Positions 2,178 through 7,387 of a stretch of DNA of 64,000 nt are shown one piece after another (within the stretch, counting starts at the first letter, position 1; each line of letters opens with the position of its first letter). The notes under the pieces are model-generated. The model ran no database searches, was not told the origin of the DNA, and saw only the letters and a program-made list of their open reading frames with translations. The stretch is from sequence record ON210137.1, one strand, 5' to 3'. The translations under genes and the position numbers were made by a program. This DNA comes from Escherichia phage EC150.

Positions 2178-2540
2178 GATACGCCTAAAATACGGCTAAA
2201 AATTAAGCGTATCATGGCTGCAGGCCGCGTCGTTCCTGGATTCTTCTTTTTAAAATTGGTACACCCTTACGTCATGATACGTCATGGTTTTTTATCCGTA
2301 TCAGTGTACAGCCCTTGCCGCGCCTGGCTTGTACATTAATCTTACGGATGATACGGATAAAACTGGGCATCGTTATATATAAAACTCCAAAAATAAATAA
2401 ACTCCATTTTAAAAACATTTATATTAATTTTTTTCATATCCTCATACTTATGTTAATTTATATATTTAACGTATCATCCGTAAGATATAAGTAAAAACAA
2501 AGACTTGCGGCAATACGGATGATACGTCATGATACGCTTC
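2178..2540. repeat. Repeat locus A: inverted GATACGG/CCGTATC-type repeats (CTTACGGATGATACGGATAAAA at 2341-2362; inverse CGTATCATCCGTAAG at 2470-2484) flanking a ~105 bp AT-rich core
   Basis: Read directly; further copies at 2178-2196, 2208-2218, 2269-2304, 2511-2537. Confidence 0.6.
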
Positions 2541-2763
2541 AACCAGCCAGCAGCGGCTAAGTCATTGATTTGCATAACAAGCGGCGAAAGGGATGGATTT
2601 CTTTTATACGTATCAAACAGTACACCACGCACCACGGTCCGCTATTCATTCAGTACTATGATTTGTGTACGTTTACAGCCAATTTGAACATCAATCTGCA
2701 CTTGAATATAATGTTCATTCATTGTATAATTCACACTATTAATTTGCACTATGGGATTTGCAC

Positions 2764-3238
2764 TATGAGTCAAGATTATGTAGCAATGCCTGAAGACTTT
2801 GAAGACCCGCGATTTGCAGAGCATAATCAGGCATTATTCGATGAGTTCATTGACCTTGTTATTCAGGGCCATGACATGCGCGCAGCTTTTGCACTAGTAT
2901 TTGGCATGGAGGTTGCGACCGATAACTACACTGGCCAGCGAGTCCTCTGCACGCAACGCAATCCGTACTACAAGATGCGCTACAAAAAGCGTATGGAAGA
3001 GATGCCATTGAAGGAATTGTGGAGCGTAAAGAGTTCCATCCACAATTTAGTGAAGCTTGTGCGTGATCCAGAAGTCGCGGCGTCAGCCAAGCTTAATGCC
3101 ATTCGTGAACTGAATATCATCTACGGCATCACGATGATTGATGAGAATGGCAATAGTAAAATGGGCCGTTCCATGGACGATTTCTACAAGGATTTTGGAG
3201 AGGCAGCCAAAGAGGGTGAGCAATTCTCCCGCCACTAG
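2764..3238 (+). CDS. hypothetical protein (158 aa)
   Basis: In-frame ATG 2764 (MSQDYVAMPEDFED...) inside track ORF 2570..3238; upstream extension starts at TTG and is low-complexity; start codon overlapped by an ATTTGCACTAT copy. Confidence 0.5.
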
Positions 3239-3258
3239 CCAATTTGCACTATAAAACG

Positions 3259-3291
3259 GCCCTAGAACACATTTTCTCCACTTCTAGGGCC
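3259..3291. terminator. Perfect 10-bp stem hairpin (GGCCCTAGAA / TTCTAGGGCC, 13-nt loop) between convergent genes
   Basis: Inverted repeat read directly; 20 nt after stop of CDS 2764..3238; weak U-tract on minus strand only. Confidence 0.45.
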
Positions 3292-3666
3292 ATCGGTAAT
3301 ACGACGGGGAAGGTTACAACCATAAACGCGTTAGAAAGTGTATTATTATAAGTCATCTTTTAGTCACTTTACGTAACAATTTACGACCTTCCGCCGTCCA
3401 GTCGAACGACTCCACCAGCAGATTTGCACTATAACCTAAGACGATGCGCCCTTTCTCGTTATCGACCCGCCAACAAGTCTCGAATAGCATTCGATTTGCA
3501 CTATTAACTATCGCCGCAACGCGCGCTGGGTAAGCGCAATTTGCACTATGGTCGTAAAGGGATAAGGTGCGACCACTTCCGATGGACAACGTAGCGATGA
3601 GAATAAGCGTATTCATAAGCCACCAATTTGCACTATGAAAAGCGACCCCGAAGGGCCGCCATTCGA

Positions 3667-4293
3667 TTAGATGATCTGGAATGTGTATGACTTGTTGCCG
3701 AACTCGAAGTTCAAGCGCCCAGCTTCCTTAAGCTTCATGCGGAAGCGAATGTGCTTGCTATCCGGTAATCCCAGCGCGATGAAAGCTACGCGGACCGATT
3801 TGAACTCGCCTACACCCTCGACCATAACGCCGTTACGGGTGAGACGCTTTTGCGCCACTTCCTTATTATCCCAACTTTTTGCAATGCCTTCGCTATTCGA
3901 ACGGCGATGGGAAGAAGTTCCATTTTGCACTACGCAATTTGCACTATCGTTTAGGCCGCTCTTAACGAAGGCTTCATACTCTTCGTCGGTCATCGCGTCG
4001 AGTTCTTCCTGAGTCGGCTCAGACTTTTTAACGACCGCACGCGCCTTATGCGTTTTTACATCGCTGGGCACTTCCTCGCGCGGCTTCGCGTCGGGAATGG
4101 GCGATTCGTTGGACGGCTCATCGAGCGCGTTCAAGGACTCGATTAACGCGATTACGCGAGTCTCGGCGGTCCGGCGGTCCGCGAACTTTTTAATCGGCTT
4201 CGAACCGGAATTTGCGTTGTAAAATGCAACGAGGTCGGCGGTCTTAGTTGCGATAACGTCGCCGCTAGTCGAGAAGCGATTTAAGCTAACCAT
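3667..4293 (-). CDS. hypothetical protein (208 aa)
   Basis: ORF track; long ORF; no recognised motif. Confidence 0.5.
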   Translation of the reverse strand: MVSLNRFSTSGDVIATKTADLVAFYNANSGSKPIKKFADRRTAETRVIALIESLNALDEPSNESPIPDAKPREEVPSDVKTHKARAVVKKSEPTQEELDAMTDEEYEAFVKSGLNDSANCVVQNGTSSHRRSNSEGIAKSWDNKEVAQKRLTRNGVMVEGVGEFKSVRVAFIALGLPDSKHIRFRMKLKEAGRLNFEFGNKSYTFQII

Positions 4294-4373
4294 AATAAAC
4301 TCCTATTTGTTAGGGCGCTAAGCGCGAAAGAATTTTATTAAAGCGCCGCGCACGACGCTCTTAAAATCCTCTC

Positions 4374-4658
4374 TTACGCTTCGACGAGGGAGAAGGTTTC
4401 AAATTCTTCTTCGCCCATAACGAGTAAAATATTCCCGATTTCGACCGCTTCGAAGAAGTATCCGTTAACGTTTACTTCGAAGGCTTCGCGGTCCGATTCC
4501 GGTAACGCCGCGTAAAGTTTAAAAGCCTCGGCGACCGTTACCCCACCCGCTTCGATAGTTTGGTCTACGTTCGCGGCGTAGACTTCGGATAAATTTTGTT
4601 TTACGCCGTAGTTCTCGACGATAGCGTTACGGATAGAAGAAACGTTAAGAATAGCCAT
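4374..4658 (-). CDS. small acidic protein, paralog family member 1 (94 aa)
   Basis: ORF track; shares EVYAANVDQTIE / VNVNGYFFEAVEIG blocks with CDS 5292..5582; conserved promoter and leader upstream. Confidence 0.6.
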   Translation of the reverse strand: MAILNVSSIRNAIVENYGVKQNLSEVYAANVDQTIEAGGVTVAEAFKLYAALPESDREAFEVNVNGYFFEAVEIGNILLVMGEEEFETFSLVEA

Positions 4659-4726
4659 TTTAAACTCCTAGTTGGGAGAGGCGTTAACGACCTATTCGTT
4701 AACTCATCCCGTCCCGATATGAGTAC

Positions 4727-4756
4727 ATTATAATATAGTGTAGAAAAAAGTAAAGC
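4727..4756 (-). promoter_or_regulatory. sigma70-like promoter TTTACT-16-TATAAT for CDS 4374..4658
   Basis: Reverse complement of 4727-4756 reads TTTACTTTTTTCTACACTATATTATAAT; same architecture as the two promoters below. Confidence 0.5.
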
Positions 4757-4798
4757 ACTTTTTCGATAAAAATGCGATAAATTATTTTATCTTTTTCC

Positions 4799-4826
4799 TT
4801 TACTTCTTCGTACACTCGCGTATACT
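4799..4826 (+). promoter_or_regulatory. sigma70-like promoter TTTACT-16-TATACT for CDS 4882..5184
   Basis: CCTTTACTTCTTCGTACACT...TATACT read directly; followed by TATATCGAGACGGG leader element. Confidence 0.5.
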
Positions 4827-4881
4827 TGTTTATATCGAGACGGGCGATGGCCTTCCTTCTACTAGCATCGGGAGTTTTATT

Positions 4882-5184
4882 ATGACTACTTTAATCTCTT
4901 CTATCCTTACTTACGACGAAGACCGTTTAACCGTTCGTTCTCTTATCGCCGCCGTTAACGCGGAACTAGAATCCACCATCATTAAGGTCCGCGCGGTCGC
5001 TTTCGTCGGCCTTTCCTTCGACGATATTAAGTATGCCGAACGTAGCGCCATCCGCTTCGCGAAGACCGACGACGAAGCCGTTACCCTTATCGAGACGGTT
5101 ACGCCGCGCGGCGAAGCGTTAATTATCGTCGAGTATATCGACGTAGAGGGCGATAAGGCTTATAAATATTTTATCGCAAAATAA
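4882..5184 (+). CDS. small protein, paralog cassette member (100 aa), distant relative of the other two
   Basis: ORF track; GGGAG Shine-Dalgarno; shares the promoter/leader element. Confidence 0.55.
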   Translation: MTTLISSILTYDEDRLTVRSLIAAVNAELESTIIKVRAVAFVGLSFDDIKYAERSAIRFAKTDDEAVTLIETVTPRGEALIIVEYIDVEGDKAYKYFIAK

Positions 5185-5196
5185 CGAAAAAGTGCT

Positions 5197-5224
5197 TTAC
5201 TTCTTCGTACACTAAGACTATAAT
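5197..5224 (+). promoter_or_regulatory. sigma70-like promoter TTTACT-16-TATAAT for CDS 5292..5582
   Basis: GCTTTACTTCTTCGTACACT...TATAAT read directly; leader shares ATATCGAGAGGGG, GAATAGGTCG and CTCCCAACTAGGAG with the leader of CDS 4374..4658. Confidence 0.5.
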
Positions 5225-5291
5225 GTTTTATATCGAGAGGGGAGAGGAAGCGAATAGGTCGCCTTCCCGCCCTCCCAACTAGGAGAATATT

Positions 5292-5582
5292 ATGATTACT
5301 TTATCCGCTATCCGTTCCGCTCGCGTCGAGACTTCCGAAAACTCTAACGTATTTGGCGAAACCTTAGAGAGCGTTTATCTCTCTAACGTCGACGCGACTA
5401 TCGAATCTATTTATGAGCCGATCAACTTCCTCGACCTTTACAAGTATCGCGACGAGGACATCGTATCATCCCGCGTAACTATCAACGGCTTCGTCTATAC
5501 GATTACCGAAATCGGCGGCGAATATATCGCGGTCCCGCAACTCGGCGGCGAAGTAACTTATTTTAAAATCGTCTCCTTATAA
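5292..5582 (+). CDS. small acidic protein, paralog family member 2 (96 aa)
   Basis: ORF track; AGGAG Shine-Dalgarno; paralog of CDS 4374..4658. Confidence 0.6.
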   Translation: MITLSAIRSARVETSENSNVFGETLESVYLSNVDATIESIYEPINFLDLYKYRDEDIVSSRVTINGFVYTITEIGGEYIAVPQLGGEVTYFKIVSL

Positions 5583-5602
5583 TACCCTTCCGTTACTAAT
5601 AG

Positions 5603-5628
5603 GCCGCGCTTAGTCGCGGCTTTTCTTC
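5603..5628 (+). terminator. rho-independent terminator (GCCGCG-CTTAGT-CGCGGC then TTTTCTT)
   Basis: GC hairpin followed by T-tract, 20 nt after stop of CDS 5292..5582. Confidence 0.6.
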
Positions 5629-5746
5629 GTCCCTATCCCGATGCGCGTCTACGCGAAAACTCCTTTATCCTTCCCTTCGTCGTCGCATAATCTTCTTCGA
5701 GATGCTCCTTAGTTCGCATAACAGGTATTACGTTAAATGGAGAACA

Positions 5747-5820
5747 TCGCGTAAGTCCTTGTTTTATATAGACACCTATATCGGACCGTTAGGGCGGGTC
5801 GCGTAAGTCGTTGTTTTATA
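5747..5820. repeat. 22-bp direct repeat pair TCGCGTAAGTC(C/G)TTGTTTTATA (5747-5768, 5799-5820)
   Basis: Read directly; one mismatch; non-coding region. Confidence 0.55.
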
Positions 5821-5945
5821 AAGGCGCAAAACTTTCCCTTCGTTCCGAACTAAAACGAGAAATGTGCCGACCCTTCGCCCGAAAATAGTACGTATGCGAA
5901 ATTACATGCATCTCGAATAATCCCTCCCGATATTATCCTACACGC

Positions 5946-6008
5946 AATCATTCGCTTTCGAATCATTATGCTTCATATTGTTATGCGTCGAATCATTCGC
6001 TTTCGAAT
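5946..6008. repeat. 18-bp perfect direct repeat pair AATCATTCGCTTTCGAAT (5946-5963, 5991-6008)
   Basis: Read directly; non-coding region. Confidence 0.55.
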
Positions 6009-6096
6009 TGTAACGCTGGAAACTGTAACGGCGATTGATTATTGCGTTCGTGTGGTTTTTATGGCATGGGTCTTTTGGTGCGTTTTGGTACTTGAT

Positions 6097-6210
6097 GAAA
6101 TTTGCAGTACACTAATCAAAATACGACACATTTGGTCCACTAACTTTTCAAAGAAAAAGTCCTAGACAGTACCGTACTATTTTGTACCCACAGGAAATTT
6201 GCAGTACACT
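6097..6210. repeat. 17-bp perfect direct repeat pair GAAATTTGCAGTACACT (6097-6113, 6194-6210), related to the ATTTGCACTAT motif
   Basis: Read directly; shares ATTTGCA core with the 2.7-3.9 kb array. Confidence 0.55.
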
Positions 6211-6280
6211 CCTGCGCGGCAGGCAAAACAAAGGGCCGCACTAAGCGACCCACGATTCACGGTTAAATCAGCAACACCCA

Positions 6281-6661
6281 CTATTCGCTCTTATGGGCAT
6301 CACCAAAGCCATCCGCAATCTGGCTGATCAATGATTCAATGGACACAGTTTTACCAATTGATCGAGCGGTAATAGCAAGCATATTATCAATCAAACCATG
6401 ATTGGATGCGTATGGTTCAGGTTTTGAATCATCTTCAGGACAACCAAAAAGCTGGTCGCGCAAACTTTCGAGAGAACGCTCAACATTTTCCAACTTCTCT
6501 TCTAAATCGGATTGGCGACGTAAAACCCATGTCAAGTCACGGTTGCCAACTTCCAATCCATCAGAATAGCAAGGTGGAGCGTCAATTTTGTTGCTGGAAC
6601 CAAAAGCAGTGCCGCTGCCTTTAGTATAAGTATGGCTCATAGAATCATTTTTATTTGACAT
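6281..6661 (-). CDS. hypothetical protein (126 aa)
   Basis: ORF track; no recognised motif. Confidence 0.5.
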   Translation of the reverse strand: MSNKNDSMSHTYTKGSGTAFGSSNKIDAPPCYSDGLEVGNRDLTWVLRRQSDLEEKLENVERSLESLRDQLFGCPEDDSKPEPYASNHGLIDNMLAITARSIGKTVSIESLISQIADGFGDAHKSE

Positions 6662-6735
6662 ATCATTACCTTTAATATTTGGTGATTAACAATAACTATA
6701 ATAAAGCCGCATAGCGCGGCATTCAAATCGATTTA

Positions 6736-6984
6736 TTAATTGTGACGATTGGATTCATCAATCGATACCAATTGTGCAGGGTTGCCGGATACCGTTGCGC
6801 CGATGATTCCCATTTGAGAGAAAAATTCTGAATAAACCTCTTTCCAGTACTTGCGCGCTGCTTTCTGGGCTTGACCTTTGCGCTTATAACTTTTGCCTTG
6901 AAAGATGAAGCGGTCTTTTGGAGCGTAATACTCCACCACACCTTCCAGCCATTGTAAGAATGCTACTGATTCATTTTTATTCAT
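6736..6984 (-). CDS. hypothetical protein (82 aa)
   Basis: ORF track. Confidence 0.45.
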   Translation of the reverse strand: MNKNESVAFLQWLEGVVEYYAPKDRFIFQGKSYKRKGQAQKAARKYWKEVYSEFFSQMGIIGATVSGNPAQLVSIDESNRHN

Positions 6985-6991
6985 GTTAACC

Positions 6992-7387
6992 TCAATATTT
7001 TAATAAGAAAGCGCCCAACCAACTTTCCTCAATCTCGCGGCCAGTAGCCACACGGTCGGTCTTTGATATGGGTCTGGATTCGCCACAGGGCAACCCGTCC
7101 TGTAGTTGTGTACTATTGCCAATCCTCACCAGAACCTTTCCATCAGGGTCGATATAAGCGCGACAACCCATGATTTCGAGTCGTTGTAGACACTGGCGAA
7201 TCGTTTTCAGCTTCTCACCGGACCTGATAGAGCGCGGTCGCGACCGCTGACCGTTCTTATTCACTTTGCGCTTTGCAACCGGAATATCATTGATGCGCTG
7301 CGACTTGGGTCGATAATAGGCTTCTTCGCCAGGAGTTGCACCTGGCGTCAGTTCGCGTTTGAGATCCTTTTCAATATCGATGATCAT
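6992..7387 (-). CDS. hypothetical basic protein (about 131 aa; track start 7459 possible)
   Basis: ORF track; internal ATG at 7387 preferred because the N-terminal extension is Cys-rich low-complexity. Confidence 0.4.
   Translation of the reverse strand: MIIDIEKDLKRELTPGATPGEEAYYRPKSQRINDIPVAKRKVNKNGQRSRPRSIRSGEKLKTIRQCLQRLEIMGCRAYIDPDGKVLVRIGNSTQLQDGLPCGESRPISKTDRVATGREIEESWLGAFLLKY

Follow-up and report, generated by a model that had tools for sequence, protein, structure and literature searches.

A TG/CA-poor module of small genes with conserved promoters and leader hairpins in the terminal repeat of Escherichia phage EC150

Within the stretch of Escherichia phage EC150 DNA analyzed here (64,000 nucleotides of sequence record ON210137.1; hereafter, the window), positions 4374 to 5582 hold three genes for small proteins, designated A, B, and C, each of which lies behind its own promoter-like element. 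What this cassette is, and what has shaped it, is the question raised by the locus. A previous inspection of the sequence alone (the sequence-only reading) had considered A, B, and C to be paralogous products of individually promoted, early-type genes in an accessory block, suggestive of a role in host takeover or anti-defense. All three open reading frames (ORFs) were recovered as claimed in the ORF listing (Table 1). Beyond that reading are the location of the cassette in a direct terminal repeat (DTR), the conservation of its promoter across genera, and a purge of the dinucleotides TG and CA. Overall, we lean slightly toward the view that the locus is an immediate-early transcription module in the DTR, that its small proteins serve in takeover or counter-defense, and that it evades an agent whose action depends on TG/CA. 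The parts of this view differ in strength: an immediate-early module driven by the host's RNA polymerase is likely, a takeover or counter-defense role is evenly poised between acceptance and doubt, and evasion of a nuclease as the cause of the purge is put forward tentatively.

The nucleotide composition of the cassette is unlike that of the remainder of the window. Between 4100 and 5700, the ratio of observed to expected occurrences was 0.22 for TG and 0.28 for CA (1.18 and 1.19, respectively, elsewhere), while that of CG was 2.17 (1.08 elsewhere) and that of TA 1.24 (0.65 elsewhere). The depletion was weaker from ~3300 to 4100, and the island ended near 5700. The genes for A, B, and C contained 6, 7, and 9 TG plus CA, respectively, when ~36 were expected (standard deviation ~5); the adjacent gene for gp208 contained 52 instead of 78, and the genes for gp87, the terminase subunits (terS and terL), and the tail fiber were not depleted. 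Codons containing TG or CA were rarely used in the island (TTG 0, CTG 1, GTG 1, TCA 2, CCA 0, ACA 0, and GCA 5), while such synonymous codons are common in the other genes of the same phage (TTG, CCA, and ACA in terL and the tail fiber gene). Codon junctions were depleted as well, and the encoded proteins are almost devoid of internal methionine, cysteine, tryptophan, histidine, and glutamine. Genes that were swapped into the cassette of relatives (that for A', see below) or inserted there (an ORF of 50 codons, 4 TG/CA versus 18 expected) are equally TG/CA-poor. Because synonymous codons, codon junctions, and swapped and inserted genes are all depleted, the constraint acts on nucleotides. Selection on amino acids alone, for example against oxidizable residues, was rejected as the cause since it leaves synonymous codons and junctions unaccounted for. 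What TG/CA is left in the window's island lies mostly in ATG starts and in promoter elements, besides a cluster where C diverges.

The same peculiarity was found in relatives whose proteins are only ~35–45% identical to those of the window. Pantoea phage PA1, Serratia phage Hera, and the metagenomic relative L098 have equivalent TG/CA-poor islands starting at the same promoter. In a second metagenomic relative, L081, the ratio of observed to expected TG/CA was between 0.00 and 0.11 from 6001 to 7000, and in its C-like and B-like genes the TG of the ATG start is the sole TG/CA, where 37 and 46, respectively, were expected. The lowest TG/CA count per 300 bp was 0–7 in this clade and at least 12 in ~55 unrelated viral contigs; we know of no genome in which TG/CA is near zero. 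The constraint is strand-symmetric, has persisted at this site in several genera, and is powerful enough to narrow the repertoire of amino acids in the proteins. Its presence both in diverged homologous modules and in inserted and swapped genes argues for continuing selection in place, and since TG on one strand of a DNA duplex reads as CA on the other, and the two thus form a single step, an agent acting on DNA is the most economical reading of the symmetry. General avoidance of restriction sites was rejected as the cause, as the island is enriched for TCGA, GCGC, TTCGAA, and AACGTT; by our own count, removal of TG/CA leaves about half of the possible type I sites of the 3+4 type compatible. 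An effect of the location in the DTR as such was likewise rejected, terS in the same repeat having normal composition. A description of the TG/CA purge, or of the promoter–leader unit detailed below (shared across genera and with a covarying hairpin), could not be found in the literature searched.

The phage context of the cassette was established by megablast. Positions 3300–6100 matched 28 phage records at 90–97% identity, all of them Wifcevirus or close relatives. These ~68-kb myoviruses of E. coli and Shigella include Mansfield, WFC, WFH, ECML-117, and Bas98–101; on the strength of these matches, the window is assigned to Wifcevirus, family Lindbergviridae. For WFC and WFH, a terminal repeat of ~3.7 kb has been published (PMC6563267), and alignment to Mansfield places the cassette in the middle of the corresponding repeat of the window, so that a long DTR, as in the pre-early region of T5, is present. 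The order within the repeat is terS (+); gp87, gp208, and A (-); divergent promoters; B and C (+); a terminator; and ~430 bp of repeat-rich non-coding DNA (Table 1). The terminase small subunit gene, as annotated in Mansfield, corresponds to 2765–3238 of the window and has normal TG/CA content; the ORF listed by the program for this gene (2570–3238) begins with a TTG that is probably too far upstream.

Table 1. Features of the terminal-repeat region of the window (positions in the window; promoters, hairpins, and terminator as predicted from sequence).
Feature	Position	Strand	Remarks
DTR	2406..6075		Single copy in window; aligned to the 3673-bp DTR of Mansfield defined by PhageTerm
gp87 (87 aa, basic)	3353..3616	-	Last gene of leftward unit
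gp208 (208 aa, basic)	3667..4293	-	Next gene downstream of A, same strand; phrog_4730 at 1.8e-88
Core of TG/CA-poor island	4100..5700		Only such island in 64 kb
Protein A (94 aa, pI 4.05)	4374..4658	-	Variable slot A; paralogue of C
Leader of A	4659..4720	-	ATATCGGGACGGG, hairpin 4681-4705 with loop AAUAGGU, then CUCCCAACUAGGAG with Shine-Dalgarno
P_A	4727..4770	-	A-tract AAAAAGTG, -35 TTTACT, TACACT in spacer, -10 TATAAT
P_B	4771..4831	+	-35 TTTACT (4799-4804), TACACT, -10 TATACT (4821-4826)
Leader of B	4832..4881	+	ATATCGAGACGGG and 5'-proximal hairpin, sequence varying between isolates
Protein B (100 aa, pI 4.67)	4882..5184	+	Separate family
P_C	5185..5229	+	AAAAAGTG, -35 TTTACT (5196-5201), TACACT, -10 TATAAT (5219-5224)
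Leader of C	5230..5291	+	ATATCGAGAGGGG, hairpin 5244-5269 with loop AAUAGGU, then CUCCCAACUAGGAG
Protein C (96 aa, pI 4.23)	5292..5582	+	Paralogue of A
Predicted intrinsic terminator	5601..5622	+	Ends rightward unit; annotated as terminator in Mansfield and WFH too
Repeat-rich non-coding stretch	5640..6075		From cassette terminator to inner DTR boundary

The shared promoter element proposed in front of each gene is real: the 19-nt core CTTTACTTNTTNNTACACT occurs without mismatch at 4737–4755 (-), 4798–4816 (+), and 5195–5213 (+), and nowhere else in the 64 kb. When up to three mismatches were allowed, 0.49 matches were expected, and no shuffle reached five. A consensus scan read TTTACT-16-TATAAT for P_A, TTTACT-16-TATACT for P_B, and TTTACT-17-TATAAT for P_C; the uniform spacing of 16 that had been claimed thus holds for the first two and has to be corrected to 17 for the third. 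With 9–10 of 12 positions in agreement with TTGACA/TATAAT at these spacings, all three promoters are, by sequence, sigma-70-like. The A-tract AAAAAGTG lies just upstream of the -35 hexamer in P_A and P_C, and the common leader start (T/C)ATATCG(A/G)GA(C/G)GGG, pointed out before, follows just downstream of the -10 hexamer at all three, with ATATCGRGA invariant in the start region. The core is identical in L081, differs at one specified position in L098, and is present with two changes (plus three looser copies) in PA1 and in a related form in Hera; all four share the context of A-tract, GTG, CTTTACT, TACAC, and TATAAT/TATACT, followed by TATATCGAAA. Because the promoter has been kept while the proteins are only ~35–45% identical, spacer and start region are under selection beyond the two hexamers; they could possibly constitute an operator for early shut-off or confer special promoter kinetics. 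Scans of IMG/VR and of a metagenome collection with the promoter core returned only Wifcevirus plus chance matches. Between the divergent P_A and P_B, at 4762–4785, lie TCGATAAAAA and GCGATAAATT, which we take to resemble the high-affinity motif of H-NS, TCGATAAATT. Mapping in Pbunavirus 14-1, a member of the same family, gave 26 promoters of the sigma-70-like kind, while other promoters there use a second motif that is specific to the phage (PMC10914365). Three copies of a clade-conserved, extended sigma-70 promoter (A-tract AAAAAGTG, -35 CTTTACT, spacer TACACT, -10 TATAAT/TATACT, and start region TATATCGARA) would fire in both directions from the center of the module, and transcription would proceed leftward through A, gp208, and gp87, and rightward through B and then C up to the terminator. 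Just outside the DTR, a perfect 17-nt direct repeat, GAAATTTGCAGTACACT, was observed at 6097–6113 and 6194–6210; it has GTACACT in common with the spacer of all three promoters.

The leaders behind these promoters carry a second conserved element. Those of A and C additionally have GAATAGGTCG and CTCCCAACTAGGAG in common, as the sequence-only reading had noticed, and its suggestion that the leaders share an RNA structure is borne out for these two; the leader of B has kept a hairpin, not the sequence of it. Folding placed a 5'-proximal stem-loop after 5–10 unpaired bases in every Wifcevirus leader. The stems of the A/C leaders vary (GUUAACG/CGUUAAC, GGUAGCG/CGCUACC, and GGAAGCG/CGCCUUCC, with intermediates containing G-U pairs or single mismatches), while the loop CGAAUAGGUCG is invariant in eight of nine variants. 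Across nine distinct A/C-type sequences, a small sample of related sequences of which one is from Hera, 94.4% of the cells pair, five of the eight pairs are changed on both sides, the covariation score was reached by none of 500 shuffles, and slid registers pair at only 22–53%. Hera has the same loop on a GGGCG/CGCCC stem, and related loops (AAUAGA, AAUAAC, AAUAU, and AUAA) occur in PA1, Hera, and L098, one of them between cistrons without a promoter. An RNA element is favored because the loop keeps its sense orientation in both leftward and rightward units. A covariance-model search of the leaders against Rfam gave no match, only sub-threshold chance matches with E>1. Each mRNA would begin with a few unpaired bases followed by the stem-loop, which in the A/C leaders probably stabilizes the message or binds a factor; it could serve as protection of the 5' end, as a processing site, or as a protein-binding site. 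Hera was also observed to have a second gp208 paralogue (L097 1265–1771), which comes first among the genes of Hera's own TG/CA-poor island, behind a promoter of the same type, and the leader of the gene that follows carries the identical CGAAUAGGUCG loop.

The proteins themselves are, as had been stated, small and acidic (Table 1), with net charges of -12 for the 94 residues of A, -5 for the 100 of B, and -8 for the 96 of C. The claim of three paralogues stands for A and C, which were aligned by BLASTP with E=2e-6 at 33% identity, by hhalign with a probability of 84–91% and E ~1e-6, and with a score 8.4 standard deviations above 2000 shuffles (z=8.4). It fails for B, for which no alignment test detected similarity to either: BLASTP found nothing between B and A and E=2.1 between B and C, hhalign gave E 0.2–0.8 even with family alignments broadened by distant relatives, and the shuffle z-scores against A and C were -0.8 and -1.0. 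The apparent resemblance of B to the others (AAVNAELES versus SNVDATIES) may partly come from the reduced amino acid alphabet imposed by TG/CA-poor DNA. Two AlphaFold2 (AF2) models, of low confidence (predicted local distance difference test, pLDDT, 66 and 59), have helices and strands in the same order, so that a common fold of B with the A/C family is possible.

That none of the three belongs to a recognized family agrees with the sequence-only reading: searches of A, B, C, gp208, and gp87 against PHROGs, Pfam, NCBIfam, and PDB sequences returned nothing except phrog_4730, a family without assigned function, for gp208, and C and B found only Wifcevirus proteins among 5.8 billion. A full hidden Markov model search of 1.84 billion representatives added two distant C-like proteins, P0038 and P0042, and Foldseek a 94-residue protein of Pantoea phage Kyle (Kylevirus, Lindbergviridae). 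Large Ig-like repeat adhesins (P0039–P0041), in which VTVNGxxYT is repeated 5–11 times, were rejected as relatives of A/C, being repeat and composition artifacts. P0038 and P0042 are encoded by L081 and L098, which share the order terS, gp87-like, gp208-like, promoter, C-like, B-like, terminator, and repeat array; L081 has a distant B homologue of 125 residues (z=8.8) and an extra gene for 97 residues ahead of the terminator.

From such context, a host-takeover or counter-defense role of the proteins is plausible. The more specific proposal, in which all three are paralogous anti-restriction or anti-CRISPR proteins of the DNA-mimic type that were multiplied for dosage or broader specificity, appears rather unlikely. 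It draws on their being small, acidic, and individually promoted, on the paralogy of A and C, and on the resistance of Wifcevirus to most restriction-modification systems by a mechanism that is not known; no sequence or fold match to such families was obtained, and the acidity is moderate (net charge -5 to -12), presumably below that of Ocr. Small, acidic, lineage-restricted families (A/C, B, and A') in exchangeable slots would most likely act in takeover or counter-defense during the first minutes of infection.

The exchangeability of the slots is evident from comparison of the window with WFH. Nucleotide identity was 100% for P_A with its leader, 96% for P_B, 92% for P_C, 99% for gp87, 94% for gp208, and 90% for B; it was 75% for C as a whole and 68% for its nucleotides 76–291, with flanks above 92%, and only 52% for the gene in slot A, i.e., the two are unrelated. 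In WFH-type phages, slot A is occupied by an unrelated acidic protein of 104 residues, A'; homologues of A' are present in PA1 (z=7.0) and, as judged by eye, Hera. In ECML-117 (L005 4379) the slot is empty, the P_A leader being joined directly to the start codon of gp208; FEC19 (L025 9004) has the same type of leader, with the contig ending at the ATG. RCIP0363 (L069 2084–2275), AV128, and ECO71P1 have an extra ORF for a basic protein of 50 residues between B and P_C, with its own ribosome-binding site and no promoter, which in RCIP0363 is flanked by duplicated AATAACGAAAAAG. Individually promoted, early-type genes in an accessory block, as first proposed, are thus consistent with sigma-70-like promoters, location in the DTR, and coding content that varies between parts of a fixed scaffold (92–100% identity). 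Fixed regulatory DNA with variable coding slots is typical of arms-race accessory genes, which does not prove that role.

What the TG/CA purge might protect against is best discussed in comparison with T5. The first-step-transfer region of T5 likewise occupies a terminal repeat; divergent promoters for the host RNA polymerase near its center serve small genes, mostly dispensable or ORFan, and its inner end has a terminator and a repeat-rich untranslated stretch (10.1101/866236), for which an arrangement of DnaA boxes has been described in T5. The region described here resembles it in layout, with predicted divergent promoters and with repeats at 5640–6075; its repeat measures 3.7 rather than 10.2 kb and includes terS. 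The pre-early genes of T5 enter the cell first, and it is only in this first-entering part that EcoRI sites and CRISPR targets are open to attack, a pre-early function guarding the remainder of the genome (10.1101/866236). The T5 protein A1 destroys the host chromosome within minutes, and the way in which the unmodified first-step-transfer DNA survives this is still a puzzle (10.64898/2026.04.02.716235); according to a proposal by Davison, it is simply devoid of the nuclease's sites (10.1101/866236). By the same logic, the early DNA or transcripts of the module would have to survive an agent whose action depends on TG/CA, and this agent could be the phage's own host-destroying nuclease or a nuclease of the host. 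Put more pointedly, and with the same reserve, the early module may be written in a TG/CA-free "dialect" with a 15-letter amino acid alphabet because a dinucleotide-dependent destructive activity operates early, be it a near-non-specific nuclease or RNase by which the phage wipes out its host or an undescribed immune activity of the host. The purge overrides codon and amino acid choice, and whatever selects for it must be powerful. The composition of T5 itself differs: its left terminal repeat (L088 1–10219) has CG at 1.3–1.5, GC at ~1.6, and GA/AG/TC/CT at 0.6–0.8, with the same dinucleotides at roughly 0.8–1.2 beyond 10 kb. Compared with the purge of TG/CA, this signature is less pronounced and affects other dinucleotides, GA/AG/TC/CT being low and GC/CG high, and no description of it was found in the literature searched.

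The restriction phenotype of Wifcevirus bears on the same point. In BASEL, these phages were insensitive to nearly all restriction-modification and defense systems tested, with no known protection mechanism; EcoKI, EcoCFT_I, EcoRI, and EcoRV had no effect, and strong sensitivity was seen only to EcoP1_I (PMC11990801). The cassette is the natural candidate for the genes responsible. The window contains six EcoKI, five EcoCFT_I (counted as EcoAI-type), 15 EcoRI, and eight EcoRV sites. In the DTR (2406–6075), there were no EcoRI, EcoRV, or EcoAI-type sites and one EcoKI site, numbers of little statistical power since 0.3–0.9 sites are expected in 3.7 kb and zeros often arise by chance; the EcoP1_I site AGACC occurred six times there, in both orientations, four of them within the island, at 4240, 4562, 4920, and 5063. 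This content parallels the phenotype, and the match would be expected if, by analogy to T5, the early DNA alone were unprotected. The site content of the terminal repeat thus predicts which restriction system should still work (EcoP1_I). If the proposal of a dinucleotide-dependent activity is correct, it might also explain the restriction resistance of Wifcevirus together with its selective EcoP1_I sensitivity; the module would then exemplify, in bacteria, a naturally evolved immunity that comes from avoiding a dinucleotide, and would give a concrete answer to the question from T5 of how first-entering DNA escapes the destruction of host DNA.

Several points weigh against an immediate-early module that evades a TG/CA-dependent agent, beginning with the weak statistics of the restriction sites just given. 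Two-step injection is not known for this phage, and transcription start sites and timing in Wifcevirus are read from the sequence. Families of the A1/A2/dmp type did not turn up when the six DTR proteins were scanned against Pfam, PHROG, and NCBIfam, a scan that did not include a direct comparison with T5 A1 and A2, and the two AF2 models (pLDDT 66 and 59) had no significant structural neighbor. A nuclease needing just a dinucleotide step would have almost no specificity, and there is no identified candidate for it. Pbunavirus 14-1 and Salmonella phage PCSE1 have no island beside their gp208 homologues. The gene terS, presumably late, lies inside the DTR and yet has normal composition. Finally, the depletion is weaker in the untranscribed spacers between the promoters, which fits an agent acting on RNA equally well as a need for each transcription unit to stay intact.

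Such an RNA-level purge, in which early mRNAs without UG and CA survive an endoribonuclease (a host toxin that infection activates, for example the ACA-specific MazF, or a host-shutoff RNase of the phage), has a small but real chance of being correct. Besides the stronger depletion in transcribed segments than in the untranscribed inter-promoter spacers, the scarcity of ACA in the island (11 versus 54 expected) and the 5' stem-loops, which also point to selection for mRNA stability, speak for it. Against this stands the fact that UG and CA are equally depleted on the sense strands in both directions of transcription, which requires two RNA specificities where one step of double-stranded DNA suffices, and that no known E. 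coli RNase requires UG or CA generally; moreover, the depletion in the window runs ~80 bp beyond the terminator, and later phage genes, of normal composition, would be exposed. An engineered counterpart at the RNA level exists in MazF-based single-protein production, in which synonymous codon changes eliminate the trinucleotide ACA and thereby spare the message from a nuclease specific for this motif. The purge described here is, unlike the ACA-less system, natural, concerns a dinucleotide on both strands, and costs five amino acids.

It is improbable that virion DNA is modified at TG/CA motifs, so that it is shielded from restriction and at the same time hinders the unmodified host RNA polymerase, with the first-read genes kept motif-free. 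Insensitivity to restriction despite many sites, by a mechanism that is not known, and the coincidence of the island with units presumably read by the host polymerase would fit. No modification enzyme, however, is annotated in bases 1–45,000 (of 68,355) of Bas99, EcoRI and EcoRV sites are without TG/CA, the promoters themselves retain TACACT and GTGC, and middle and late genes are transcribed by the host core polymerase too. Regulatory insulation can be given scarcely more than a token chance: a sequence without TG/CA has no stray ATG/GTG/TTG starts and no TTGACA or TGn elements on either strand and is free of most sites for host factors, so that the dedicated promoters and start codons alone would work. 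Most of the TG/CA left over indeed belong to ATG starts or promoter elements, and the promoters have TTTACT instead of TTGACA at -35; but such selection is normally far too weak to cost five amino acids and to leave zero TG/CA over 1.3 kb, and it is absent elsewhere in this genome and in the ~55 control contigs. A compositional artifact of recent horizontal transfer from a donor of like composition, with the cassette as an ordinary moron, is very improbable despite an island sharply unlike the rest of the genome and exchangeable coding slots, and transfer was rejected as the cause of the purge because the same bias is shared by homologous modules of at least four other lineages at 35–45% protein identity and by inserted and swapped genes.

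Other phages offer partial parallels to an immediate-early module in a terminal repeat. The host-takeover module of the Bacillus phage SPO1 comprises 24 genes in 13 kb and lies in the terminal redundancy; like the present one, it consists of small genes that have no known relatives and of which all or almost all follow a strong early promoter for the host RNA polymerase and a ribosome-binding site, while host and sigma factor differ and there is no sequence relationship. We know of no dinucleotide purge in the SPO1 module. The DTR of T7 is only ~160 bp long and non-coding. The class I region of T7 (promoters A1–A3 and gene 0.3, encoding Ocr) is similar in having several strong host promoters at the entering end and, as their first product, a small acidic anti-restriction protein (Ocr, PMC7064336); sequence and structure searches with A, B, and C did not detect any resemblance to Ocr. 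The leaders recall the nut sites of lambda in that a short conserved sequence (boxA in lambda) is followed by a hairpin (boxB) with an invariant loop and a variable stem in the leaders of divergent early transcripts. They are unlike them in that the loop is AAUAGGU rather than of the GAAAA type of boxB, no N-like protein was identified, the leader of B is without the motif, and the related hairpin of Hera lies between cistrons without a promoter. The conserved promoter and leader hairpin may be of practical use in E. coli as compact elements that probably give very strong expression.

The remaining parts of the DTR are conserved to different extents. Homologues of gp208 are kept throughout Lindbergviridae (tblastn matches in 355 phage records, including Pbunavirus); its residues 12–79 matched the N-terminal region of NusA non-significantly (E=0.28), and terminator prediction found none between A and gp208. 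Homologues of gp87 occupy the same position in L081, L098, and PA1; in WFH, predicted terminators are annotated both before and after gp87, and the match of gp87 to the winged-helix family DNA_binding_1 of Pfam was non-significant (E=0.09). The non-coding stretch 5640–6075 contains two copies of TCGCGTAAGTC(C/G)TTGTTTTATA plus units of the TCGAATCATT type. At the equivalent place, arrays of AAYCATT units are present in L081 (7190–7510), L098 (3330–3700), and L083 (1080–1400), with similar arrays in PA1, and the sequence at the inner boundary, TTTGGTAC(T/G)TGATGAAA, is kept in L081 (TTTGGTAC..GATGAAA). These repeats may be an analogue of the injection stop signal of T5 or a terminase site. Bases 1–45,000 of Bas99 (L087) encode a polynucleotide kinase/phosphatase and an ATP-dependent ligase, which might work together in nucleic acid repair, as well as a MazG-like pyrophosphatase, ThyA, and an FabG-like reductase. 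In the window as a whole, GATC was under-represented (103 versus 247 expected), and CAGCAG (69 versus 27) and GCGC (397 versus 180) were over-represented.

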